From: an uncultured Acidobacteriaceae bacterium
GTDB lineage: Bacteria; Acidobacteriota; Terriglobia; Terriglobales; Acidobacteriaceae
Reading direction: 5' to 3'
DNA length: 64,000 nt
Assembly: GCA_963816335.1 (NCBI GenBank)
Contig: CAWFKA010000009.1
Span: 360,392 to 424,391, forward strand
Shown: piece by piece, positions 1-33,344 of the stretch
Position numbering within the stretch: the stretch's first letter is position 1
How the letters are laid out: each line of letters starts with the position of its first letter
Notes under the pieces: generated by a model
Seen by the model: only the letters and a program-made list of their open reading frames with translations
Database searches by the model: none
What the model was told of the DNA's origin: nothing
Made by a program: the position numbers and the translations under genes

Positions 1-627
1 GCTGACGAGATTGAAGCCAAGGGACGAAAGACGCTGAGGATTGCTTCCGACGTGCGGGATCGCAAGTCGCTCGAATCGGTCCGCGATCAGACTGTAAGCA
101 CTTTCGGCAAGGTGGATATATTGTTCAACTGCGCCGGTATTACGAAGCGCGCACCAACCTTGGATTTTTCCGAAGAGACATGGTCTGACATCATGGAGAT
201 CAATCTCACCGGCACTCTGCGCGGCTGCCAGGTCTTTGGGCAGCACATGCTTGATCGCAAGTATGGCCGAATTATCAATATTGCTTCCCTATCCACGTTT
301 GTAGGCCTCTTCGAAGTTGCGGCGTATGGCGCCAGCAAGGCCGCTGTAGGGTCGCTGACGAAAACGCTGGCGGTGGAGTGGTCACGCCATGGAGTTCTTG
401 TGAACGCGATCGCGCCAGGACTATTCCGAACAGCCTTGAACGCGAGCCTGCTGGATGGGACCGATCGAGGCCGCGAATTTCTGACTCGCACACCGATGGG
501 GAGATTTGGAAAAACGGAAGAACTGGTCGGGGCAGCCGTCTTTCTCGCGTCGGATGCGGCAGGTTTTATTACCGGCGAGATTATTGTGGTGGACGGCGGG
601 TTTCTTGCGAGCGGAGTGAACCAGTAG
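1..627 (+). CDS. SDR family oxidoreductase (KduD/IdnO/UxuB-like), 5' end cut by window edge
   Basis: Frame 1 is open from nt 1. The translation shows the classical SDR core (NIASLS, YGASKAAV Tyr-x3-Lys, PG..RT, VVDGGF tail). It lies directly upstream of uxaC. Confidence 0.85.
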   Translation, partial: ADEIEAKGRKTLRIASDVRDRKSLESVRDQTVSTFGKVDILFNCAGITKRAPTLDFSEETWSDIMEINLTGTLRGCQVFGQHMLDRKYGRIINIASLSTFVGLFEVAAYGASKAAVGSLTKTLAVEWSRHGVLVNAIAPGLFRTALNASLLDGTDRGREFLTRTPMGRFGKTEELVGAAVFLASDAAGFITGEIIVVDGGFLASGVNQ

Positions 628-668
628 ATAAGAAGGGTCGCCGATTTGACGATTTTGGACTGCGGGTT

Positions 669-2063
669 ATGACGATATTGAATGACGACAGGCTATTTCC
701 TTCGGATCCTACTACGCGTGCGACCGCTCGGCGCTTGTATTCCGAAATTCGTTCGCTCCCGATTCTCAGTCCGCACGGCCATACAAATGCTGAATGGTTT
801 GCGGAGGACCAGGCCTTTCCTGATCCGGCGCGCCTCTTCATTTCACCGGATCACTACATCTATCGAATGTTGTACAGCCAGGGTCTTCGTTTAGAGGACC
901 TTGGAGTAGGCACGCGGCTGGACATGGATCCGAGAAGCGTGTGGCGACTATTCGCGAAGCACTACTATTTGTTTCGTGGCACGCCGACGCGGATGTGGCT
1001 GGATTACGCATTTCAGGAACACTTTGGGTTGCAGGCGCGACTGTCGGAGACAAACGCGGATCAGTACTTCGACACAATCTCCGAAAGGCTCAACCAACCG
1101 GAGTTTCGGCCTCGCGCATTACTGGAGAAGTTCAAGATTGAAGTTTTGGCGACAACCGATTCTCCGCTGGATTCGCTCGAACACCACAAGAAACTCCAGA
1201 CGCTTAAATTGACGACGCGCATTCTTCCGACCTTTCGTCCTGACGCGGTTGTTGATCCTGCCTTCGATTCTTTCAAGGCTAACGTTCTGAGGTTGGCCAC
1301 ACTCTCTGCTGAAGATACGACGAGTTGGAGCGGTTATCTGGCAGCACTGCGTTGGTCGCGTGAGCAATTCAAAGCATTGGGTTGCACGGCAACGGATCAT
1401 GGTCATCCGACCGTAGCGACGGCTGATCTGGATTCTTCCTCCGCTGCAGCGTTGTTCAACACCGTGCTGGGTGACGCTGCGACGCCTGCGGATAAGGAAC
1501 TCTTTCGGGCACAAATGCTTACGGAAATGGCGCGAATGAGTATGGATGATGGATTGGTGATGCAGATCCATCCGGGAAGTTTCCGCAATCATAATCTGCA
1601 GCTATACAAGACTTTTGGCCGGGATGTTGGCGCGGATATTCCGACGCTGACTGACTATGCCCACAATCTGCAACCTCTGCTTAATCGCTTTGGAAATGAA
1701 GCGAGCCTGACAATCATTCTCTTTACGTTGGACGAATCTACTTACAGCCGTGAGCTTGCACCGTTGGCAGGCCATTATCCCTGCCTTCGACTTGGACCGG
1801 CGTGGTGGTTCCACGACAGCCCCGAGGGAATGATGCGATATCGTGAAACGACGACGGAGACTGCTGGCTTTTACAATACAGTGGGCTTCAATGACGATAC
1901 GCGCGCTTTTCTATCCATTCCGGCGAGGCATGACGTGGCGCGCCGAATTGATTGTGCGTACCTGGGCAGGCTGGTAACGGAACATCGACTGGATGAGGAT
2001 GAAGCTCACGAACTCGCACATGAACTTACATATGGACTGGCGCATCGGGCGTACAGGTTGTAG
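669..2063 (+). CDS. uxaC: glucuronate isomerase
   Basis: 465-aa product from the ATG at 669 (MTILNDDRLFPSDP...). It has UxaC-like length and motifs (SPHGHT, IHPGSFRNHN, WWFHDSPEGM). The upstream part of ORF 378..2063 overlaps the SDR gene and reads as non-protein-like Arg-rich sequence. Confidence 0.9.
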   Translation: MTILNDDRLFPSDPTTRATARRLYSEIRSLPILSPHGHTNAEWFAEDQAFPDPARLFISPDHYIYRMLYSQGLRLEDLGVGTRLDMDPRSVWRLFAKHYYLFRGTPTRMWLDYAFQEHFGLQARLSETNADQYFDTISERLNQPEFRPRALLEKFKIEVLATTDSPLDSLEHHKKLQTLKLTTRILPTFRPDAVVDPAFDSFKANVLRLATLSAEDTTSWSGYLAALRWSREQFKALGCTATDHGHPTVATADLDSSSAAALFNTVLGDAATPADKELFRAQMLTEMARMSMDDGLVMQIHPGSFRNHNLQLYKTFGRDVGADIPTLTDYAHNLQPLLNRFGNEASLTIILFTLDESTYSRELAPLAGHYPCLRLGPAWWFHDSPEGMMRYRETTTETAGFYNTVGFNDDTRAFLSIPARHDVARRIDCAYLGRLVTEHRLDEDEAHELAHELTYGLAHRAYRL

Positions 2064-2167: not shown

Positions 2168-3439
2168 TTGGTTAGCGGACTCCCACAATCAGGGTTGTAT
2201 ATGAGCGATGAGGACCTGCGCAAGGTCGTCGCTGACGCTGCTTCGTCTGGCCCATTCGATAACAAGCGAGTATTGGTCATTATCCCTGATGGAACTCGCA
2301 CAATGCCGATGGCGCAAATGTACTCCGCGCTGCTGGAGCTGTTGAAACCTCGGACCACTGCGCTCGATTACTTAGTTGCTCTCGGCACGCATCCGCCGAT
2401 GAACGATGCGCAACTGAGTAAGCTGATGGGACATCCGGTGGTCGACGGCACAATTGGTGAGTCCCGTATCTTCAACCATCGCTGGGAAGATCCAGAGACA
2501 TTCACCTGCTTTGGATCAATTTCAGCCAGTGAGATTGCTTCCATTACGAAGGGTCTGATATCGCAGGAAGTCCCCGTTACCTTGAATCGAATGATTCTTG
2601 ACTACGATCATATTGTGATTTGCGGACCCGTTTTTCCGCACGAGGTTGCGGGTTTCTCCGGAGGTAACAAGTACTTCTTCCCAGGCATCGCCGGATCGGA
2701 GATCATCAACCTTACTCACTGGCTGGGCGCGATGATCACCAACTATAACGTGATCGGAACGACTTACACGCCCGTGCGTGCGGTGATCGAACGAGCAGCC
2801 ACCTTCATCCCGCGGCCTACATCGTGCTTTGCCCTTGTCGTAACGGAGCAAGGTCTCGCAGGAATGTTTTTTGGGTCTGCTCCTGAGGCCTGGAAAGCAG
2901 CTGCATTGCTTTCGGCAAAAACTCATATCGTTTATGTCGATGCACCTTTCAAGAGAGTGCTTGCGATCATGCCTGAAATGTATGACGACTTGTGGACGGC
3001 TGCGAAGGGCATGTACAAGATGGAGCCCGCTGTATCGGATGGCGGTGAAGTCATTATCTACAGCCCAGGAATTACAGAGGTCAGCTACACGCATGGCAAG
3101 CTGATTGATGAGGTTGGATACCATTGCCGCGACTACTTTACGAAACAGTGGGACCGCTTTAAGGACTTTCCTGGTGGAGTGCTGGCCCACTCGACGCACC
3201 TGAAGGGCATGGGCCAATACGATACGGAGAGTGGCATAGAATATCCGCGGATTAATGTGACACTTGCCACTGGAATACCGCGAGAACGCTGTGAGCGATT
3301 GAATCTCGGCTATCTGGATCCGGCGAGTATAAACATTGAGGAGTGGCGCGATCGTGAGAGCGAGGGTGTCGTGGTTATTCCTCGCGCCGGAGAGACTCTA
3401 TTTCGACTTAAGGAACCGCATATGATCGCGGCAGACTAA
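2168..3439 (+). CDS. LarA-like (DUF2088) nickel-pincer-dependent 2-hydroxyacid racemase/epimerase family protein
   Basis: 423 aa with LarA N-domain signatures: VLVIIPDGTR, ALGTHPPM and FPHEVAGFSGGNKYFFPG (the GGxK segment). The TTG at 2168 follows GGAGA; an alternative ATG lies at 2201. Confidence 0.75.
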   Translation: MVSGLPQSGLYMSDEDLRKVVADAASSGPFDNKRVLVIIPDGTRTMPMAQMYSALLELLKPRTTALDYLVALGTHPPMNDAQLSKLMGHPVVDGTIGESRIFNHRWEDPETFTCFGSISASEIASITKGLISQEVPVTLNRMILDYDHIVICGPVFPHEVAGFSGGNKYFFPGIAGSEIINLTHWLGAMITNYNVIGTTYTPVRAVIERAATFIPRPTSCFALVVTEQGLAGMFFGSAPEAWKAAALLSAKTHIVYVDAPFKRVLAIMPEMYDDLWTAAKGMYKMEPAVSDGGEVIIYSPGITEVSYTHGKLIDEVGYHCRDYFTKQWDRFKDFPGGVLAHSTHLKGMGQYDTESGIEYPRINVTLATGIPRERCERLNLGYLDPASINIEEWRDRESEGVVVIPRAGETLFRLKEPHMIAAD

Positions 3440-3478: not shown

Positions 3479-4567
3479 TTGCGGATGAGTTTAGGTTTCG
3501 AAATTGCCAAGCATAAGTCTTTGGATCTGCTTTCTCTCGGCGCCCTGGTCAATCGGGTTGATCCCGGGGTGATTCCTTTTCGGAAAGCTTCGCATTTCTC
3601 AATTCATGTAAGCGGGGGTGAATTTAACGTAGCAGCGAACTTGTCCGACTGCTTTCGGATGAACACTGGGATTGCTTCGGCCATGGTTTCTTACCCGGTC
3701 GGCGACCTTATAGCTGAGAGAGTTCGAGCAATGGGTGTGCGCCCCTTCTATCGCCATTTCGAGCACGATGGCACGCACGGACCTAACATGGCGACCGTCT
3801 ACAGTGACCGCGGATTCGGAGTACGGGTACCCGTGGTTTTTTACAACCGCTCCAACGAAGCTGCCGCGCTGCTGAAGCCCGGCGACTTTGACTGGAAGGC
3901 GATCTTCGACGAGGGCGTTCGTTGGTTTCACAGTGGTGGAATCTTTTCCTCTCTGTCCGACAGCACAGCGGAACTTGTCCTGGCGGCGATGCATGCCGCC
4001 AAGGCGGCAGGCGTCATCGTTTCCTTCGACTTGAACTATCGCGAGAAGCTATGGAAATCGCGCGGGGGCATTAAGCGCGCTCAGGAAGTTCTTGGATCCA
4101 TCATAGAAAATGTGGACGTGCTCGTCGGCAATGAAGAGGACTTGCAGAAGGGACTTGGCTTTTCGGGTCCGGAGGTCCATGGACGGTCTAAACTTGATCC
4201 CGGCGCGTTTCTATCCATGATTGGAAACGTCGTCCATCGTTTTCCGAACGTGAAGATCGTGGCCACAACTCTTCGCGAAGCTCATTCCACAAACCGGCAC
4301 AGTTGGGGAGCAGTTGCGTGGGTGAACGGCAAAACCGTATCTTCACCGACGTGCGAGCTTGATGTGTATGACCGTGTAGGCGGCGGCGATGGGTTTGCTT
4401 CGGGCTTCTTTTACGGTCTGCTCAATGGGGAGTCACCGGAGCAGGCCATTCGCCTTGGCTGGGCACATGGAGCGTTGCTGACAACCTATCCGGGCGATAC
4501 TACGATGGCCACAGTGGAGCAGGTGAGAGCTTTCGCTGAGGGCGGTTCCGCGCGGATTCAGCGTTAG
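3479..4567 (+). CDS. kdgK: PfkB-family sugar kinase, probable 2-dehydro-3-deoxygluconokinase
   Basis: Contains the PfkB signature DRVGGGDGFASGFFYGLL and NYREKLW. It sits with uxaC. The ATG at 3485, 9 nt after GGGGGA, is the likelier start. Confidence 0.8.
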   Translation: MRMSLGFEIAKHKSLDLLSLGALVNRVDPGVIPFRKASHFSIHVSGGEFNVAANLSDCFRMNTGIASAMVSYPVGDLIAERVRAMGVRPFYRHFEHDGTHGPNMATVYSDRGFGVRVPVVFYNRSNEAAALLKPGDFDWKAIFDEGVRWFHSGGIFSSLSDSTAELVLAAMHAAKAAGVIVSFDLNYREKLWKSRGGIKRAQEVLGSIIENVDVLVGNEEDLQKGLGFSGPEVHGRSKLDPGAFLSMIGNVVHRFPNVKIVATTLREAHSTNRHSWGAVAWVNGKTVSSPTCELDVYDRVGGGDGFASGFFYGLLNGESPEQAIRLGWAHGALLTTYPGDTTMATVEQVRAFAEGGSARIQR

Positions 4568-4686: not shown

Positions 4687-5109
4687 TTAAGTTTCCGTCC
4701 CGGTAGCCACAACAAAGTACTGCGCGTCCACGGAGCCGCTGTTCCGAACTCCATGTTCTTCGCCCGAATGGACGTAGGCGGCAGAGCCAGGTCCAATTGT
4801 GGATGTCTTGCCCGCGATCGTGACGTCCAAATTTCCCTTGCACATCAGAAATAGTTCGTCGTGCTTGTGATGATGAGGTGGATGGGGAGAACTTCCCGGC
4901 GCAAGGATCGTTTCGTGAACCTCCATCTGCGCACCGGACTCAGTCTTGCCATTCAGAATTGGCCTCATCGTGTTAGGGCCGCTCTTTTTAGCTTCTAATT
5001 TGTCAAAAGGAGTTACGAACGAGGCTAAACCCTGGTCCTGCGCAGAGGAGGCTATCGATGCGAACAGGATAGGTAGTGAAGCACATAGGCTACGCCGTGA
5101 TGCATCCAT
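4687..5109 (-). CDS. secreted cupin domain protein
   Basis: Cupin motifs HHHKHDELFLMCKG and AAYVHSGEEHGVRN. The internal start MDASRRSLCASLPILFASIASSAQ gives a signal peptide and removes the overlap with the TBDR stop. Confidence 0.7.
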   Translation of the reverse strand: MDASRRSLCASLPILFASIASSAQDQGLASFVTPFDKLEAKKSGPNTMRPILNGKTESGAQMEVHETILAPGSSPHPPHHHKHDELFLMCKGNLDVTIAGKTSTIGPGSAAYVHSGEEHGVRNSGSVDAQYFVVATGTET

Positions 5110-5185
5110 AAGAACCCCTGTGATTGAAAATTTGGGGATGATCGATTGGATTTCTCCGGCGATCATCCCCGCTGAGGGCGTGAGC

Positions 5186-8100
5186 CTAAAAGGAGAGCTT
5201 GGCGGATAGCTGAAGTGCGCGTCCACCGCCGACACCGTTCACTCCGCTTCCGCTGCCGAGTGTGCTGGTAACTTGTCCAAACGTACCGCTGGTTAGCGAC
5301 GCTTGGGGATTCGCAAACTGTGGTGTGTTGGTTAACTGGAAAGCATCGGCACGGACATTGAGGATCCATCTTTCCGTGATCCTGAAGTCCTTGAACATGG
5401 AAAGATTGTTCTGAAAGTAGCCCGGACCATAGAACTGGTTGCGGCCGGTGTTTCCAACGAACGCTTGTCCGTTGGGGTAGGTCCCTACATACCCTAACGG
5501 TTGAGCAAAGCTGGAAGTATCAAACCACTGCTTTCCGGCTCCGATATGTCCAAGCTTGTGAAACGGCTTTACCAGGTTCGCAGTCTGTGTGGTTCCAGGC
5601 GTGTTAAGCGTTCCGCCGTTCGCAGTCACGGTGAAGGGAATACCGGAGACTACCGATATGATTCCTGCGATCTTCCAACCACCAATAATCGAGGACGCTA
5701 TACCGGAAGAATTCACCCAGCGTTTGCCCTGTCCAATTGGCAGCTCATAGGTAAAGCTCTGTTCAAAATTGAGCCTGCGATCGTAGTCGGCAGGACCATA
5801 GTTTCTCCGCTGATCGACGTAGAACAAAAGACCGCCATCGTCTCCGCTCTGATAGTTCAACCCTTTGGCCCAGGTAAATGCTGTTGTGGATGCAAGTCCG
5901 TTGACAAAGTGTCTGACTAACTGCGTTTGCAGGGATTGGTAATTCGACGAATAGCCAAGAAAGATCGCATTGGTGCTGGCGGTACGATGTAAGGTCGTGC
6001 CAGGAAGAGAATTGGGCAAGTTATATTCCGGGTCGCTTGCGCTCCCACCACCGTAAACACTGGGCAGATTGATGTTCTGGTTTGACGCAATGTTAACGCC
6101 GTGATTGGCCACATACGCTATCTGCAGGGAAAACTGCCCGGGCAACGCCTGCTGAACCGTCAGATTCCAGGACATTGCGTAGGGATTCTTCCAGTCAGTT
6201 GGAACCACGTTATAGTTCTGCGCGACGAGTTGCGGAGTATTCGTCGCAATGATTCCATCCGATGGAATTACAACGGGCACAGGTGCCGGAAATCCTGCCT
6301 GGAATGTTGGCACAGTGACGTTATCAGCCAGCACTGCGGGCTGATAGCTGTTAAGAGAGTTGTACGAGTTGTTAGACCGCACGGGATAGTTATACGCATA
6401 ACTGTTGTCCGGATACGGTGTATAGCTTATTCCGAAGCCGCCGCGTAGTACCGTAGCTTCGCTTACACGGTAGGCGAAGCCCGTTCTCGGAGCGAAGTAG
6501 CTGTAATACGTTTTCATTCCCAGATTCGATGGATTGGTTCCAACGCCCGCTAAAACCAGCTGGTTCGCGGCTGGATCAAAGTTGGAAAAGCCGCCCGTTA
6601 CCGCTGGTGTAGCAGGAGGATAGAGTTCCCAACGGAGGCCGAGATCGAGGGTTAATTTCGATGTCGCCTGCCACTTGTCATTGACGAAGCTAAAGATCCA
6701 CCACTGTCGGTATGCCGGAGTGAAGGTATTCAAGTCACGTCCCGCCTGGCTGGGCAAATCGAGGAGGAAACTGGCCATGTCGTTGGCAATATTCGTAGCT
6801 GTGCCCGGCGTGGAAGTCTGGTTTTCCGCAAAGGTGTAGACGCCTCTGGGACTGAACGTCTGATCCTGGAGGAGGTCGTCTCGAATGCGCCGCAAATCAC
6901 CGCCAAACTTGAGGGTGTGATTCTTTATGATCTTGGTCCAATGGTTTACAAAGTCGATGTTAGACTCTGCACGGATCCAGGGCACGCTGGCTGAATATCC
7001 AATGATGGGGTTCGAGAAATTTCCAAGAGTGATTCCGACCTGTCCGGAGGTGAACGGCTGTCCGGGAATATTGACTCCGGGAACGCCGAGCGTGTCGGCA
7101 TCGTTCGAACCATAGTTTGATGGAGTGGCGTTGTTTGCGAGATGTGCAACGCCAATTCTCGCCTCAGTCAGCAGCGTGGGAGAGAAGACCCGGTTGTAAT
7201 AGACACCGGTGCTATAGGCGCCCTGGTTGCCTGTTGCCTCGAAGCCTCCCTGTGCGGGGCCTCCAAAGAATGGTCCAAAGACGGGTGCCTGGTAAGTTAG
7301 AACGCCCTGGTAGCTGTAACGACCGCTCAGAGTGTCCTTTGAATCGATTACCCAATCAACCTTGGAATCATAAGTATTGCTGCCCTTGGTAAAAGCTAGA
7401 TTGGCGTTGTAGTCATTCGCGAGCGTATATCCATTGGGAACGGTGCGATTAGGTGCAGGTAGTCCATTAAGAATGGACAGCGTGACAGGATTTACACGGC
7501 TCATCGGGATTTGATTGTTGGGGAACTGCTGCCTTCCGGTTCCATCCACATTACCTGTCGTCGGGTCATAGATGTTGCCGGCGTTTGTAGTGGGATTATG
7601 CGCGCCGTTGAGATCGATGCATTCTCCACCACCGGTCAAGCAAGGAACCGGGGTAGAAAACTCCTTCAATGGAATTGTGAGGCTGTTGTTATTTGCTTCG
7701 TGGTCCGAAGTTCTCAGGTAGTCAAAGTAGAAGAACAATTTGTTCCTCACGATTGGTCCACCTATACCACCACCAAAATAGTTATAGGCAACATGGGGCA
7801 AAGTGGTCGAGAAGTAATTCTTGGCGTTGAATGCCTGGTTCTGCAGGAATTCTTCGACGAACCCGTGGAACTGGTTGGTTCCCGATTTCAGAATGACGTT
7901 CGTTACAGCTCCGGTCGCGCGGCCAAGCTCTGCTTCGAAATTGTTGGTCGAAATATCAACCGTCTGAATCGCTTCTGCAGGCGGAATCAATATTTGCAAA
8001 AGGCCAGTTCGCTCGTTGTCGTCAATACCTTCGATCTGGTAGCTGTTTCCCTGTCGAGGCAAGCCGTTCACTTGCGTTTGCAGCGAACTTTGCGCATTGA

Positions 8101-8656
8101 AGAATTGCGAGTGCTGGAAAGTGGCGGGTGTCGTTCCCGGAACGAGGTTAAGAAGTCCCTGGAAGTTACGGTTCACCGACAACGGCATGTCGGCCACCTG
8201 TCGCGTGTCGAAGTTGACGCTGATATCGGCGCGGTCAGTCTGCAGCATCGGCGGCGCATCCGTAACGGTGACCGTTTCGCTTACATCGCCTGTGGCCATC
8301 GCGATGTCGACTCGGCTTGTGGAGTTGACGTTGACATCCACGTTTTCACGCAACGCTTTTTTGAAACTGGCTGCCGTAGCCGCTACGGAATAACGCCCCG
8401 GCGACAGATCAGGAAACGTGTAGTTGCCGCTATCGTTGGTTTTTGCTTCATGTGTAAGACCTGTGTTTACCTCGGTTATTGTCACGGTTGCGTTAGGGAC
8501 CGACGCACCCGAGGAATCCGTCACGGTTCCCAGAAGGGTTGCGCTGACGGCCTGTGCTCTTGCTTGCTGTCCTGCAGCGAGGAGCGTGCAGAAGACGAGA
8601 GCATAAATCATTTTTTTTATATTTTGATTGAACACCTTGCGGCCTCCGAGGAACAT
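5186..8656 (-). CDS. TonB-dependent receptor with N-terminal carboxypeptidase-regulatory-like domain
   Basis: 1156 aa. Signal peptide, then GTVTDSSGASVPNATVTITEVNTGLTHEAKTNDSGNYTFPDLSPGRYSV (CarboxypepD_reg), a plug region, a long beta-barrel and a C-terminal aromatic residue (LSF). An alternative start lies at 8611. Confidence 0.85.
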   Translation of the reverse strand: MFLGGRKVFNQNIKKMIYALVFCTLLAAGQQARAQAVSATLLGTVTDSSGASVPNATVTITEVNTGLTHEAKTNDSGNYTFPDLSPGRYSVAATAASFKKALRENVDVNVNSTSRVDIAMATGDVSETVTVTDAPPMLQTDRADISVNFDTRQVADMPLSVNRNFQGLLNLVPGTTPATFQHSQFFNAQSSLQTQVNGLPRQGNSYQIEGIDDNERTGLLQILIPPAEAIQTVDISTNNFEAELGRATGAVTNVILKSGTNQFHGFVEEFLQNQAFNAKNYFSTTLPHVAYNYFGGGIGGPIVRNKLFFYFDYLRTSDHEANNNSLTIPLKEFSTPVPCLTGGGECIDLNGAHNPTTNAGNIYDPTTGNVDGTGRQQFPNNQIPMSRVNPVTLSILNGLPAPNRTVPNGYTLANDYNANLAFTKGSNTYDSKVDWVIDSKDTLSGRYSYQGVLTYQAPVFGPFFGGPAQGGFEATGNQGAYSTGVYYNRVFSPTLLTEARIGVAHLANNATPSNYGSNDADTLGVPGVNIPGQPFTSGQVGITLGNFSNPIIGYSASVPWIRAESNIDFVNHWTKIIKNHTLKFGGDLRRIRDDLLQDQTFSPRGVYTFAENQTSTPGTATNIANDMASFLLDLPSQAGRDLNTFTPAYRQWWIFSFVNDKWQATSKLTLDLGLRWELYPPATPAVTGGFSNFDPAANQLVLAGVGTNPSNLGMKTYYSYFAPRTGFAYRVSEATVLRGGFGISYTPYPDNSYAYNYPVRSNNSYNSLNSYQPAVLADNVTVPTFQAGFPAPVPVVIPSDGIIATNTPQLVAQNYNVVPTDWKNPYAMSWNLTVQQALPGQFSLQIAYVANHGVNIASNQNINLPSVYGGGSASDPEYNLPNSLPGTTLHRTASTNAIFLGYSSNYQSLQTQLVRHFVNGLASTTAFTWAKGLNYQSGDDGGLLFYVDQRRNYGPADYDRRLNFEQSFTYELPIGQGKRWVNSSGIASSIIGGWKIAGIISVVSGIPFTVTANGGTLNTPGTTQTANLVKPFHKLGHIGAGKQWFDTSSFAQPLGYVGTYPNGQAFVGNTGRNQFYGPGYFQNNLSMFKDFRITERWILNVRADAFQLTNTPQFANPQASLTSGTFGQVTSTLGSGSGVNGVGGGRALQLSAKLSF

Positions 8657-8869: not shown

Positions 8870-9604
8870 TTATTTGGTGGGAGGGGAGACCATCTGGCTA
8901 GACACGCCGGTGGTTTCTACAATAGGTTCTCCGGAGAGCACACCCTGAACCCTGAGCAGGTGCTGGCGCATCGCGGTTCGGGCTCCCAGAGCGTCCCGTG
9001 TAGAAAGGGCTGCCACAATCGCCTTGTGATCCCGGATCGTCTTTTCCTGGTTTTTCAGGAGCCCGGTTCGTTCGCTTAGCTTGTTAAACATGGGGTTGAA
9101 CATATTGCTCCACAACGTATCCACAAGTCCTGTAAGTACGCTGTTCCCCATTACGGCAGCAATCCGCTTGTGAAACGCCTGATCCGCATCTCGGCCCTGG
9201 CTGCCGGCGGCCATGGCTCGCTCCATGTCGTCGATCGTCATTTGAATCTCGTTCAGATCCTCAATTGTGGCCTGAACCGCCACATTTGCGGCTATTTCAC
9301 CTTCAATCAGCAACCGCGCATTCAGTAATTCGAATGGCCCCGGGCCAGAGTCAATGATGACGGTTCGCGATGGGGAGGGCTTGCTAACGTAGATTCCAGA
9401 GCCTGTCCGTACCTCCACCAATCCAGCAATCTCAAGGGCGATCATTGCTTCGCGAATGGTGGGCCGACTGACCCCGAGCTGGCGAGCTAGTTCCTTTTCG
9501 GCAGGGAGTCTCTTTCCTGCGCCGATTCTGCCGCCTGAAATCAGTTCCTCAATGCGACTTGCCACCTGCTGATAAAGACGTTGCGTAGCAATGGGCTGTA
9601 ACAT
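8870..9604 (-). CDS. GntR family transcriptional regulator, FadR/FCD subfamily
   Basis: N-terminal wHTH (LPAEKELARQLGVSRPTIREAMIALEIAGLVEVRTGSGIYV) plus an all-helical FCD-like C-terminal domain. Confidence 0.9.
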   Translation of the reverse strand: MLQPIATQRLYQQVASRIEELISGGRIGAGKRLPAEKELARQLGVSRPTIREAMIALEIAGLVEVRTGSGIYVSKPSPSRTVIIDSGPGPFELLNARLLIEGEIAANVAVQATIEDLNEIQMTIDDMERAMAAGSQGRDADQAFHKRIAAVMGNSVLTGLVDTLWSNMFNPMFNKLSERTGLLKNQEKTIRDHKAIVAALSTRDALGARTAMRQHLLRVQGVLSGEPIVETTGVSSQMVSPPTK

Positions 9605-9710: not shown

Positions 9711-11312
9711 ATGATCAAGGCCGATGTGTTCCCAGTTCTACGACCGACACTGCTTATTTTCGCTTGCGCCTTTGGCCCATGGACCATCGCGCACAGCCAG
9801 ACTCTCACGCTCTCGCCATCAACTTTGCCAAAAGTTGGCGAGGTGGATGAGCGCTTCCAGTCTTACAACATCGAGATGGTGGAAGTGACCGGTGGAAAGT
9901 TCTGGAAACCCTACGATCAGAAGGTTGACGCGATTCTTGCTGCACAGGCAGCTGCTCAAAAGACAGGTGCGGGCCAGCCAACTGGAATGAATCCAGATCT
10001 CTACCAGTACAGGTCACCGATCAATTTAAGTAGTCCACGACTTCGCAAACTAGCGGGTGCGTTGGGTCCGGCCTATCTGCGGGTAAGCGGCACATGGCAG
10101 AACTCCACATATTTTCTGAACTCGGACGATTCGTCGGTACCACCTCCACCTAAAGGGTTCAACAGCGTTTTGACACGCCAGCAGTGGAAAGGCGTGGTGG
10201 ATTTTGCCCACAATGCCGATGCGAAGATCGTCACTTCCTTCGCCACAAGCGTCGGAACGCGGGATGCGGCAGGTGTCTGGACACCAGAGCAGGCACACCA
10301 GTTCCTGGCGTATACGAAATCCATCGGCGGCAGCATCGCTGCGGCGGAATTTATGAACGAGCCAACATATGCCGAGATTGGTGGGGCGCCAAAAGGATAC
10401 AGTGCTGCCGATTATGGTCGGGACATATCCGTGTTTGTTCCGTTCATTCGACGAGAGGCGCCGAATATGATCCTACTTGGCCCAGGATCAGTGGGCGAAG
10501 GCGCCAGTCTGGGCGCGATGCGTCTACTGAAGTCTGAAGATCTCCTGACGGCGAGCGGGCCTGTGTTTGACGCATTTTCGTACCATTTCTACGGTGCGAT
10601 TTCGAATCGTTGTTCCTCCATGGGGGGAGGCAAGGGCGGGATCACTCCCGAACTCGCACTCTCTAACGAATGGCTATCAAGAACGAATACTGTCGAGGCC
10701 TTTTATGCGGGGCTTCGAGACCGTTTCATGCCTGGCAAGCCAATGTGGAATACGGAAACGGCGCAAGCCGCCTGCGGAGGAGATCGCTGGGCCGCGACTT
10801 TCATTGACAGTTTTCGCTATCTAAATCAGTTGGGAAGCCTCGCCAGGCACGGGGTTCAGGTGGTTGCGCACAATACTCTCGCGGCAAGCGACTATGGTCT
10901 GATCGACGAAAAGACGCTAAACCCGCGTCCGAATTATTGGGCAGCCCTTCTGTGGCGACAGTTGATGGGGACAACGGTACTGGATGCCGGAGCTTCGCCT
11001 TCAGAAAACCTGCACCTGTACGCTCACTGCATGCGTGGGAACTCAGGCGGAGTAGTGTTGATGGCAATTAATGCCGATCGCACAACGGCGCAATCGATCC
11101 AGTTGCCGAAGGCGGGAGAACGGTACACTCTGACTGCCAAAGATCTACTTGGCTCCGAAGTTAAGTTGAACGGCAACACGCTCTCTGTTGGTGGTGATAA
11201 TTCACTGCCAAAGATCGCCGGCGTCGCCACCAAGTCTGGAGTGATTACATTTGCGCCAACGAGCATTACGTTTCTCGCGTTCCCTAAAGCAAACAACCAA
11301 ACTTGTCATTAG
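9711..11312 (+). CDS. glycoside hydrolase family 79 (beta-glucuronidase / heparanase-like)
   Basis: Signal peptide. FMNEPT (acid/base Glu region) and WNTETAQAACGGDRWA (nucleophile Glu region) are typical of GH79. It lies adjacent to hexuronate catabolic genes. Confidence 0.8.
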   Translation: MIKADVFPVLRPTLLIFACAFGPWTIAHSQTLTLSPSTLPKVGEVDERFQSYNIEMVEVTGGKFWKPYDQKVDAILAAQAAAQKTGAGQPTGMNPDLYQYRSPINLSSPRLRKLAGALGPAYLRVSGTWQNSTYFLNSDDSSVPPPPKGFNSVLTRQQWKGVVDFAHNADAKIVTSFATSVGTRDAAGVWTPEQAHQFLAYTKSIGGSIAAAEFMNEPTYAEIGGAPKGYSAADYGRDISVFVPFIRREAPNMILLGPGSVGEGASLGAMRLLKSEDLLTASGPVFDAFSYHFYGAISNRCSSMGGGKGGITPELALSNEWLSRTNTVEAFYAGLRDRFMPGKPMWNTETAQAACGGDRWAATFIDSFRYLNQLGSLARHGVQVVAHNTLAASDYGLIDEKTLNPRPNYWAALLWRQLMGTTVLDAGASPSENLHLYAHCMRGNSGGVVLMAINADRTTAQSIQLPKAGERYTLTAKDLLGSEVKLNGNTLSVGGDNSLPKIAGVATKSGVITFAPTSITFLAFPKANNQTCH

Positions 11313-31747: not shown

Positions 31748-33344
31748 CTATCGGAGGCACTGTTGATTGCCTGCCGAGGGCATCTCGAGGAATGTAATGG
31801 TCAAGGGCGGGAATTTGTTTGTGCCCGGCTTCAATGCTTCTCCATGGATCGACGGAACCGTTCCATCCGGGCCTGCCCTCAATTCCTTGCCATTGAGTAG
31901 CACGGCTTGGCCGAAAATATCAGGCGACGAAAGGCTGTACCGTTCTCCGGCGACCGGCAGTTTGAGCAATGCTTCGGAAGTCTTGTCCATGTTAAGAACC
32001 ATGAGAGTCACTCCGCCGTTTGAATCTTTCATGCACTGTGCGTAGATGCGGACATTCTTTGCCGGCACAACCCCAGGGTCCAGAGACCGAGTTCCCATGG
32101 TGCGCTTCCACAGAAGAGCAGCCCAGTAGTTGGGGCGCGGTTCCAGGGTTTCCTCGTCGAGCATGCCATAGTCACTGCTCGCCAGCGTGTTGTACATGAT
32201 CGTCTTGACGCTTCTTTGTGCAAGAGCGCCGAACTGGTCTAGCAAGCGGAAGCTGTCGGCAAATTGGGCAGCCCAGGTATCGCCGCCGCATGATCCTTCG
32301 CCGGTTTCGGTGAGCCAGAGATTCTTGCCCGGAAGGTAGGCGTCACGCTCGTTCGCGTAGAAGTTGTAGACGGTCAGGTCGCGGTCCAGCCACTCAGAGG
32401 TGAGCAGCTGTTTGGCGATCAGCGCCGCTCTCTCCCAGGCAGCGATGCGACGGCATGGAATAGAAGTGATAGGAGAAGGCATCGAAGATCGGGCCCGTGG
32501 CCTTCATCAAGTCGTCGGTAGAAACAATCTCAAAACGCCGTCCGCCCGGCATTGACGGAAGTGGAAGCCCTTCGGCCGCGCTACCCGGTCCCAGGTAGAT
32601 TGTCGTCGGAGACTCGCGACGCAGGAAAGCGTCGAAGATCTTTGCGTCTCGGCCGAAGCTGGCGGCATCGTAGCCCTTCGGCACACCGCCGAAGCTGAGC
32701 AGAGTGGGTTCGTTCATGAACTCTATCGCCGCTATATGACCACCGATTTGTTTCGTGTAGTCGAGCCATGGTTTGGCTTGTACAGCGGTCCAGACTCCGT
32801 TCGCATCACGAGTTCCCGCGCTCGTCGCGACCGAAGCAACAATTTCGGCATTGACGGCCTTCGCAAAGTCGACGACCCCCTTCCACTCGGCGCGCGTGAG
32901 GACGCCGTTGAAGCCTTCCGGCGGACTCTTTAGCGGCGGATCGTCGTTGTTCTGGAAGTAGGTGGCATTGCGCCATGTGCCGCTGACGCGAACGTACGCT
33001 GGACCGAGCGCGGCAGCGAGTTTGCGAAGCTTCGGGTTCGAGAGATCGATGGGCGGACGGTACTGGAACAGGCTGCTATCGAGACCAGCAGGCTGATTGC
33101 CGGAATGCTTGTCGGAGCTAGCGGCAGCAGCTTTTTGTGCTGCGGATTTGTATGGCGCCCAGAACCGCCCACCGGTCACCTCAACGGCCTCCACATTGTA
33201 GGAGACGAAACGGGGATCGACTTCGCCGAGAACTTTCATACTCTGCGGCGAGACGGTCATTTGGGCGGTTGCCGACTGAACGCAGTTGATCGTGAGTGCG
33301 CCACCTGCTACCAATACCGAAGATAGGGCTGAAAAGGACTTCAT
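31748..33344 (-). pseudogene. second GH79 (beta-glucuronidase-like) copy, split by a frameshift near 32440-32470
   Basis: The N-terminal ORF (32394..33344, signal peptide, FMNEPT) and the C-terminal ORF (31748..32482, WLTETGEGSCGGDTWA) are collinear with the intact GH79 at 9711-11312 but lie in different frames. Confidence 0.75.

Follow-up and report, generated by a model that had tools for sequence, protein, structure and literature searches.

The stretch of DNA analysed here, called the window throughout, comprises 64,000 nucleotides of contig CAWFKA010000009.1 (positions 360,392 to 424,391, forward strand), from the assembly GCA_963816335.1 of an uncultured Acidobacteriaceae bacterium. Near its start, at 2168-3439 (+), lies an uninterrupted open reading frame (ORF) of 423 codons, coding for a LarA-family protein of 423 amino acids. 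The gene starts with a TTG at 2168, with a GGAG 5 nucleotides 5' of it; an alternative in-frame ATG is found at 2201, 11 codons after the TTG. The product matches the Pfam domain Lar_N (PF09861) with 87 bits, against a cut-off of 23.3, and contains the segment FSGGNKYFFPG: its identification as a LarA homologue, made in an initial annotation from the sequence alone, is thereby confirmed. The family of the protein, its subgroup by signature, its residues, the genes for its cofactor and its conserved gene neighbourhood are shown below. The reading preferred here, held with moderate confidence, is that it acts as a C2 epimerase dependent on the nickel-pincer nucleotide (NPN), converting D-mannonate to D-gluconate in glucuronate breakdown.

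Five genes follow one another on the same strand, in the order MFS, SDR, UxaC, LarA homologue, PfkB kinase. The operon is headed, just upstream of the window, by an acid-sugar transporter of the major facilitator superfamily (MFS; D-galactonate-transporter subfamily). The next gene codes for a short-chain dehydrogenase/reductase (SDR; Pfam adh_short_C2) of 258 amino acids, which begins 150 nucleotides before the window and whose 3' part occupies 1-627 (+). UxaC, the glucuronate isomerase, is found at 669-2063 (+), and scores 577 bits against a cut-off of 387 with the NCBIfam model PRK02925. The longest ORF for UxaC opens at 378 and shares 250 nucleotides with the end of the SDR gene (window 378-668); since the profile match begins at ORF residue 98 and an in-frame ATG is available at 669, the true start is probably ATG 669, not 378. 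The last gene of the series, at 3479-4567 (+) with a probable start at ATG 3485, codes for a sugar-acid kinase of the PfkB family (Pfam PfkB).

Beyond the kinase, three genes recognized by Pfam are located on the opposite strand: a Cupin_2 protein (4687-5235, -), a TonB-dependent outer-membrane receptor with a CarboxypepD_reg N-domain (5186-8656, -) and a GntR/FCD regulator (8870-9604, -), the probable regulator of the locus. A glycosidase of family GH79 (beta-glucuronidase family) follows at 9711-11312 (+), with 28 bits to Glyco_hydro_79n, where the cut-off is 23; it is the likely source of free glucuronate. The neighbours listed in the initial annotation (SDR, UxaC, PfkB kinase, TonB-dependent receptor, GntR/FCD regulator, GH79) are therefore all present. 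The assignment of uxaC stands, while the label "KdgK" (2-keto-3-deoxygluconate, or KDG, kinase), given to the PfkB protein, is doubtful: as reported below, this protein may be a gluconate or mannonate kinase.

By sequence, the nearest solved structure is 4NAR, matched at full length (residues 32-417) with an E value of 2.7e-63, where lactate and malate racemase structures reach only 1e-6 to 3e-4. Desguin et al. (2020, PMC7583248) identify 4NAR as GntE2 of T. maritima, a D-gluconate 2-epimerase, in its apo form. An AlphaFold (AF2) model of the window protein, built on 32 sequences and with a mean confidence score (pLDDT) of 89, superimposes on 4NAR with a template-modelling (TM) score of 0.87, and on LarA structures with scores of 0.70-0.74. 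All the residues which bind NPN in LarA have an equivalent in the window protein (R75 corresponds to R44, K184 to K168 in GGNK, H200 to H184 in THW), and so do the catalytic ones (D72 to D41, H108 to H75, H174 to H158, K298 to K280); they fall in the motifs PDGTR (D41/R44), GTH (H75), PHEV (H158) and WTAAKG (K280). The active-site loop, located at 2639-2671 (+) by alignment to 4NAR and 2YJG, runs from H158-E159-V160 to the G-G-N-K168 segment: it includes a catalytic His, the "EV" pair that is typical for the GntE branch, and a Lys equivalent to the NPN tether of LarA. Conservation is nearly complete: R44, H184, D41, H75, H158 and K280, as well as the loop residues H, E and V (158-160), are found in 91 of 91 orthologues, K168 in 90. 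The retention of the His and Lys motifs of the family, noted in the initial annotation, is thus borne out for every position. From these sequence comparisons, the protein is a LarA-superfamily enzyme, predicted to be NPN-dependent. With LarA of L. plantarum (5HUQ) it shares the fold, the NPN-binding Arg, Lys and His, the two catalytic His, the Asp and the Lys; identity is 17% by structural alignment, and the pocket residues are polar and small, not Phe/Phe/Trp. By analogy with the family, a hydride would pass from C2 of the substrate to C4 of the NPN pyridinium, with His75 and His158 acting as acid/base on opposite faces of a 2-keto intermediate, and Lys168 and His184 would hold the cofactor.

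The genes for cofactor synthesis, larB, larC and larE, are not found within the window, as already remarked in the initial annotation; a search of the whole genome located all three on another contig, in one overlapping cluster in the order larE-larC-larB (C12:12238-15190, -). Scores are above the curated cut-offs: 293 bits against 175 for LarB, 438 against 22 for LarC, 320 against 150 for LarE. Of the 121 genomes of the class 112 contain LarC; among the 11 carriers of an epimerase orthologue it is present in 10. Three unpublished genomes (G071, G087, G095) enter such class-wide totals only; none of them is a carrier, and no particular claim depends on them.

The position of the protein within the superfamily was determined from the groups of Desguin et al. 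(2020), which are defined by 20 logo positions. At these positions the window protein reads DRHHEVKHVWTAKGLASTHK. The rows of group 19, including that of GntE1 of C. glutamicum, carry the same residues, with L or I at the fifteenth position and R or K at the last; the Nostoc punctiforme row, Npun_F5335, also in group 19, is identical to the window protein at 20 of 20 positions. Group 18 is characterized by ...W L N K S A A L I H S, and group 20 by ...E S...W T G K N A A V I N R: the window protein does not carry the ES loop, WTGK and NAAVINR of group 20, and has EV, WTAK and GLASTHK instead. The group of the window protein and group 20 are sister groups. The best NCBIfam match is the group 18 model NF052594 (putative hexonate epimerase), with 188.4 bits, below its cut-off of 500. 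In a quick maximum-likelihood tree, whose sampling leaves the characterised group 19 enzymes outside, the window protein falls inside a clade of 69 rows bearing the group 19 signature (SH-aLRT support 94). This clade is separate both from the group-18-like clade and from P0202, a 50%-cluster representative with 571 bits to 4NAR, used as a proxy for group 20. A short motif of GntE1 in its printed sequence, HDVIDISHW, is found in no 50%-cluster representative; the comparison with group 19 is based on the printed signature dataset. On the signature, the window protein belongs to LarA homologue group 19, of the GntE1 type, within the GntE branch.

GntE1 (LarAH19, or "G2E2") has the same type of 20-position signature, superfamily, fold and cofactor residues; at signature position 362, Lys is found in the window protein and in the Nostoc row, Arg in GntE1. 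GntE2 (TM0442, group 20) has the same catalytic and NPN residues, at about 30-40% identity, and its operon follows the same pathway logic, with UxaE, fructuronate reductase, GntE, gluconate kinase and Gnd (6-phosphogluconate dehydrogenase) nearby; the gluconate kinase of Thermotoga is of the FGGY family, whereas the window's locus has a PfkB kinase. Group 18 (NF052594; A. capsulatum ACP_2683, Koribacter Acid345_4308) lies in the same branch, with the EV loop and the Trp in helix 11, and its published context is alike (SDR, 6-phosphogluconate dehydrogenase, ribokinase-family kinase, MFS, UxaC); its signature, WLNK..SAALIH, differs from WTAK..GLASTH of the window protein.

Homologues are abundant: a word-indexed search returned at least 8000 matches, the best 120 at 67-92% identity, and those with a name are mostly called "lactate racemase". 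Scanning a single genome of each species yielded 283 loci; neighbourhood counts refer to the best 80 of them, 52-91% identical to the window protein, which represent Acidobacteriota, Chloroflexota, Planctomycetota, Armatimonadota, Deinococcota, a Nostoc and others. Among 120 sampled genomes from the class of the window's genome, 11 contain an orthologue (56-73% identical); in 28 further ones a paralogue of about 30% identity is the only homologue. Eighteen of these paralogues were examined: most bear the group 18 signature, and those from Terriglobia form a separate clade. One orthologue (L070:9179-10535; G029:C10) is broken into ORFs of 157 and 290 amino acids, likely by a frameshift or as a pseudogene. 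In a fusion protein of 2030 amino acids (P0139), residues 1114-1540 form a domain 45% identical to the epimerase.

The orthologues, as expected from the initial annotation, sit in sugar-acid loci. An SDR gene is found upstream, on the same strand, in 47 of the 72 loci with enough flanking sequence; the type of SDR adjoining the epimerase in most loci passes the NCBIfam model "D-mannonate oxidoreductase" (363 bits against 281). A 6-phosphogluconate dehydrogenase, which passes the gnd equivalog model (680 against 413), begins less than 400 nucleotides downstream in 31 of 64 loci. A kinase is present within 4.5 kb downstream in 26 of 50 loci; it is a PfkB kinase in 23 loci, and in 20 of these it is 68-95% identical to that of the window. 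UxaC or UxaE is found in 14 of the 36 loci of at least 15 kb, while UxuA (mannonate dehydratase) and Eda (the KDPG, 2-keto-3-deoxy-6-phosphogluconate, aldolase) are nearby in none of the 80. Some loci carry a UxaE-like gene; in one Terriglobia genus the loci add GH28 polygalacturonases and a pectinesterase, and are therefore pectin loci. In group 19, as described by Desguin et al., ties to UxaC, SDR and mannitol-dehydrogenase-family genes are already on record; in the 80 loci analysed here, all non-actinobacterial, Gnd and the PfkB kinase dominate, whereas the paper reported Gnd for group 18 and not for group 19.

Two variants of this arrangement were observed. In 11 loci, mostly of Chloroflexota (e.g. 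L065:8067-9362, -), a gene of the phosphofructokinase (PFK) family follows the LarA homologue and Gnd, in the usual place of PfkB; it passes a pyrophosphate (PPi)-phosphofructokinase subfamily model, and is not claimed as a gluconate kinase. In 14 of the 80 loci, across phyla, a conserved gene for a protein of 296 amino acids is inserted between SDR and epimerase (L064:10859-11749(-), L074, L100, L107, L125). It has no Pfam, NCBIfam or PDB match and is absent from the window's genome; a language-model search on protein-atlas features points to hydrolases/phosphatases of the HAD (haloacid dehalogenase) family with a score of 0.99, as a lead only.

The kinase of the window does not reach any NCBIfam cut-off: with the best KDG-kinase models it scores 132, 80 and 34 bits, where 440, 400 and 400 are demanded. 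The label "KdgK" is doubted because, in many phyla, the kinase accompanies the epimerase and 6-phosphogluconate dehydrogenase; gluconate or mannonate, rather than KDG, may be its substrate. A second PfkB paralogue, considered as the true KdgK (C16:539347-540378, 44% identical), is located in an uninformative neighbourhood. Canonical gluconate kinases, of either known type, are not found above cut-off in five genomes, and G078 has no match at all.

Enzymes of the classical pathway are missing from several carriers. Of the 11 genomes of the class which bear an orthologue, all at least 92% complete, 7 gave no UxuA; these seven (G078, G010, G019, G028, G037, G075, G099) are 96-100% complete, and the three of them in which UxaA, the altronate dehydratase, and canonical GntK were also looked for (G078, G010, G019) have neither. 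An anti-correlation with UxuA across the class is not claimed: UxuA-family matches occur in 4 of 11 carriers and in 49 of 121 genomes overall, a difference that is not significant. The window's genome contains a 6-phosphogluconate dehydrogenase of the short type (461 bits against 271), as well as two Eda genes, a YjhG/YagF-type dehydratase and several enolase-superfamily proteins. The second gene of the IlvD/Edd family, considered as Edd, proved to be a xylonate dehydratase of the YjhG/YagF type instead. On contig C8 (G000:C8:89487-91466), an enolase-superfamily (MR_MLE) protein is encoded directly upstream of an Eda gene: the pair may be a sugar-acid dehydratase with its aldolase, acting on gluconate, mannonate or galactonate.

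As to the substrate of the epimerase, the order of the steps and the substrate of the kinase, we infer a six-step route, the simplest which makes use of every conserved neighbour. GH79 would free glucuronate and the MFS carrier would import it; UxaC would convert it to D-fructuronate, with UxaE added for galacturonate; the SDR would reduce fructuronate to D-mannonate; the LarA homologue would invert C2, giving D-gluconate; the adjacent PfkB kinase would form 6-phosphogluconate, and Gnd would convert this to ribulose-5-phosphate, at the entry to the pentose-phosphate pathway. The route would stand in for the UxuA step of the classical pathway. The role of an aldonate C2 epimerase in hexuronate catabolism, proposed in the initial annotation, is the best-supported reading, in view of the GntE branch, the residues, the presence of LarBCE and the sugar-acid loci. 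It is also consistent with published activity: GntE1, the one enzyme of group 19 to have been assayed, and GntE2 (group 20) both epimerise D-mannonate to D-gluconate in vitro (PMC7583248), and the same bypass is on record from the physiology of Lactobacillus suebicus.

Several results weigh against a mannonate epimerase feeding Gnd. At the window's own locus no Gnd adjoins the epimerase, and the SDR is of another subtype, 35% identical to the usual neighbour; at full length it scores 255 bits against a cut-off of 339 for KduD, 244 against 279 for gluconate 5-dehydrogenase and 234 against 281 for D-mannonate oxidoreductase, and is a candidate for the fructuronate reductase forming D-mannonate. 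The nearest characterised relatives of the window kinase are KDG kinases, the best PDB match being 2AFB, the KDG kinase of T. maritima (158 bits). The window's genome gave no UxuA, but it is only 69% complete, so that absences from it are weak evidence; and gluconate or mannonate may be converted to KDG there, since the genome contains enolase-superfamily dehydratases, one of them beside Eda, and the YjhG/YagF dehydratase. G078, a genome of the same family, 100% complete and with an orthologue 73% identical (L060:9085-10359), has no LarC match. Finally, the Michaelis constant (KM) of GntE1 for D-mannonate is 120 mM, and the authors who measured it question whether this is the substrate used in nature (PMC7583248).

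This high KM makes a reversed order of the last steps a live alternative, though one we consider rather improbable: the PfkB protein would be a mannonate kinase, and the LarA homologue a 6-phospho-D-mannonate 2-epimerase, yielding 6-phosphogluconate directly. Such an order matches Lactobacillus suebicus, where the kinase acts first, followed by a 6-phosphomannonate 2-epimerase (Valk et al. 2020): both activities were shown, no genes were identified, and none of the later papers searched names them. The likeness is one of activity; the net conversion of mannonate to 6-phosphogluconate is the same, bypassing UxuA, KdgK and KdgA and redox-neutral to ribulose-5-phosphate. Besides the very poor KM of GntE1, from the same subgroup, for free mannonate, the co-conservation of epimerase, Gnd and kinase fits this order, and the HAD-phosphatase-like gene inserted in 14 of the 80 loci hints at phosphorylated intermediates. 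Free mannonate is, however, turned over by both GntE1 and GntE2; no phosphate-binding feature is shown in the window protein, and GntE2, a free-acid enzyme, also has the basic residue conserved at signature position 362. It is conceivable, with about the same low probability, that the epimerase and the co-conserved PfkB kinase are the genes of the route that combines a kinase for mannonate with a 6-phosphomannonate 2-epimerase, group 19 being made of phospho-aldonate epimerases. If so, phospho-aldonate specificity would explain the KM of GntE1, the PfkB clade that resembles KdgK would represent a new kinase for mannonate (or gluconate), and in many soil Acidobacteriota and Chloroflexota the two enzymes would take the place of UxuA, KdgK and Eda.

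Other substrates are less probable still. A different sugar acid (altronate/allonate, L-gulonate/L-idonate, a uronate at C5, or an aldarate) is an unlikely choice: Desguin et al. (PMC7583248) speculated on an aldarate such as glucarate/mannarate for group 19 and expressed doubt on its native substrate, and several orthologous loci, with GH28 and pectinesterase, are devoted to pectin, i.e. to galacturonate; but Gnd, directly downstream in about half of the loci, calls for a product of gluconate configuration, and no aldarate or idonate pathway genes are found in the neighbourhoods. Slightly further down in likelihood comes epimerisation one step earlier, at the level of the keto-acid, from D-fructuronate (5-dehydro-D-mannonate) to 5-dehydro-D-gluconate, which the SDR would then reduce to D-gluconate. 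Fructuronate is a 2-hydroxy acid and, judging from its structure, has the C2-C4 configuration of mannonate; the window SDR scores equally well for gluconate 5-dehydrogenase/KduD as for mannonate oxidoreductase, and the poor KM of GntE1 for mannonate would be accounted for. The SDR adjoining the epimerase in most loci, on the other hand, passes the D-mannonate oxidoreductase model, and among LarA homologues no earlier case of action on a keto-aldonate was found. A lactate racemase, the identity suggested by the database names of close homologues ("nickel-dependent lactate racemase"), is very improbable, and was rejected: the protein scores 77.5 bits with the LarA equivalog NF033504, where the cut-off is 460, its substrate loop reads Glu-Val and not Phe-Phe, helix 11 contains WTAK and not YQ.VK, and GntE1, of the same group, is without lactate racemase activity (PMC7583248, Table 1). 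A separate paralogue, LarA/Mar-like, is encoded on contig C4 of the same genome (G000:C4:61148-62107; L013:5852-7126, -); its best matches are to lactate racemases (372 bits) and malate racemases (332 bits), neither score reaching the cut-off.

The preferred reading, a mannonate 2-epimerase of the GntE type, is not a new idea: the kind of enzyme, the chemistry and the pathway are already published. According to PMC6978723, where it is cited, Rodionova 2012 proposed the bypass from Thermotoga gene order, and pointed to homologues in Acidobacterium and Terriglobus; Desguin et al. (2020, PMC7583248) showed the activity, and reported UxaC, SDR and sugar-kinase genes in the contexts of groups 18 and 19. 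What is added here is a subgroup assignment by signature, a module of SDR, epimerase, Gnd and kinase recurring across phyla, and the doubt on the "KdgK" label of the neighbour. A widespread database name is also corrected, thousands of close homologues being called "lactate racemase". The GntE bypass is probably a main hexuronate route in abundant soil phyla, redox-neutral to ribulose-5-phosphate, and the KdgK-like PfkB clade and the group 19 epimerases are concrete candidates for two activities without assigned genes. The gain is one of annotation and candidate genes, rather than of principle.

A few further features concern the regulation and the surroundings of the locus. Promoter and terminator scans of the operon returned sites no more numerous than in shuffled sequence. 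Operator-like 13-mers are found at the promoter of the GntR/FCD regulator itself (between regulator and GH79) and at the receptor promoter. A copy of the 13-mer palindrome with 2 mismatches, GCTGTCAGACAGG, is located at L151:786-798, about 1.6 kb upstream of window position 1 and about 18 nucleotides 5' of the MFS transporter ORF. The copies at the MFS, regulator/GH79 and receptor promoters suggest, by their sequence, a single GntR regulon. A second GH79 copy, split into two reading frames and 53-58% identical to that at 9711-11312, is found further along the window, at about 31757-33260 (G000:C9:392148-393651, -).

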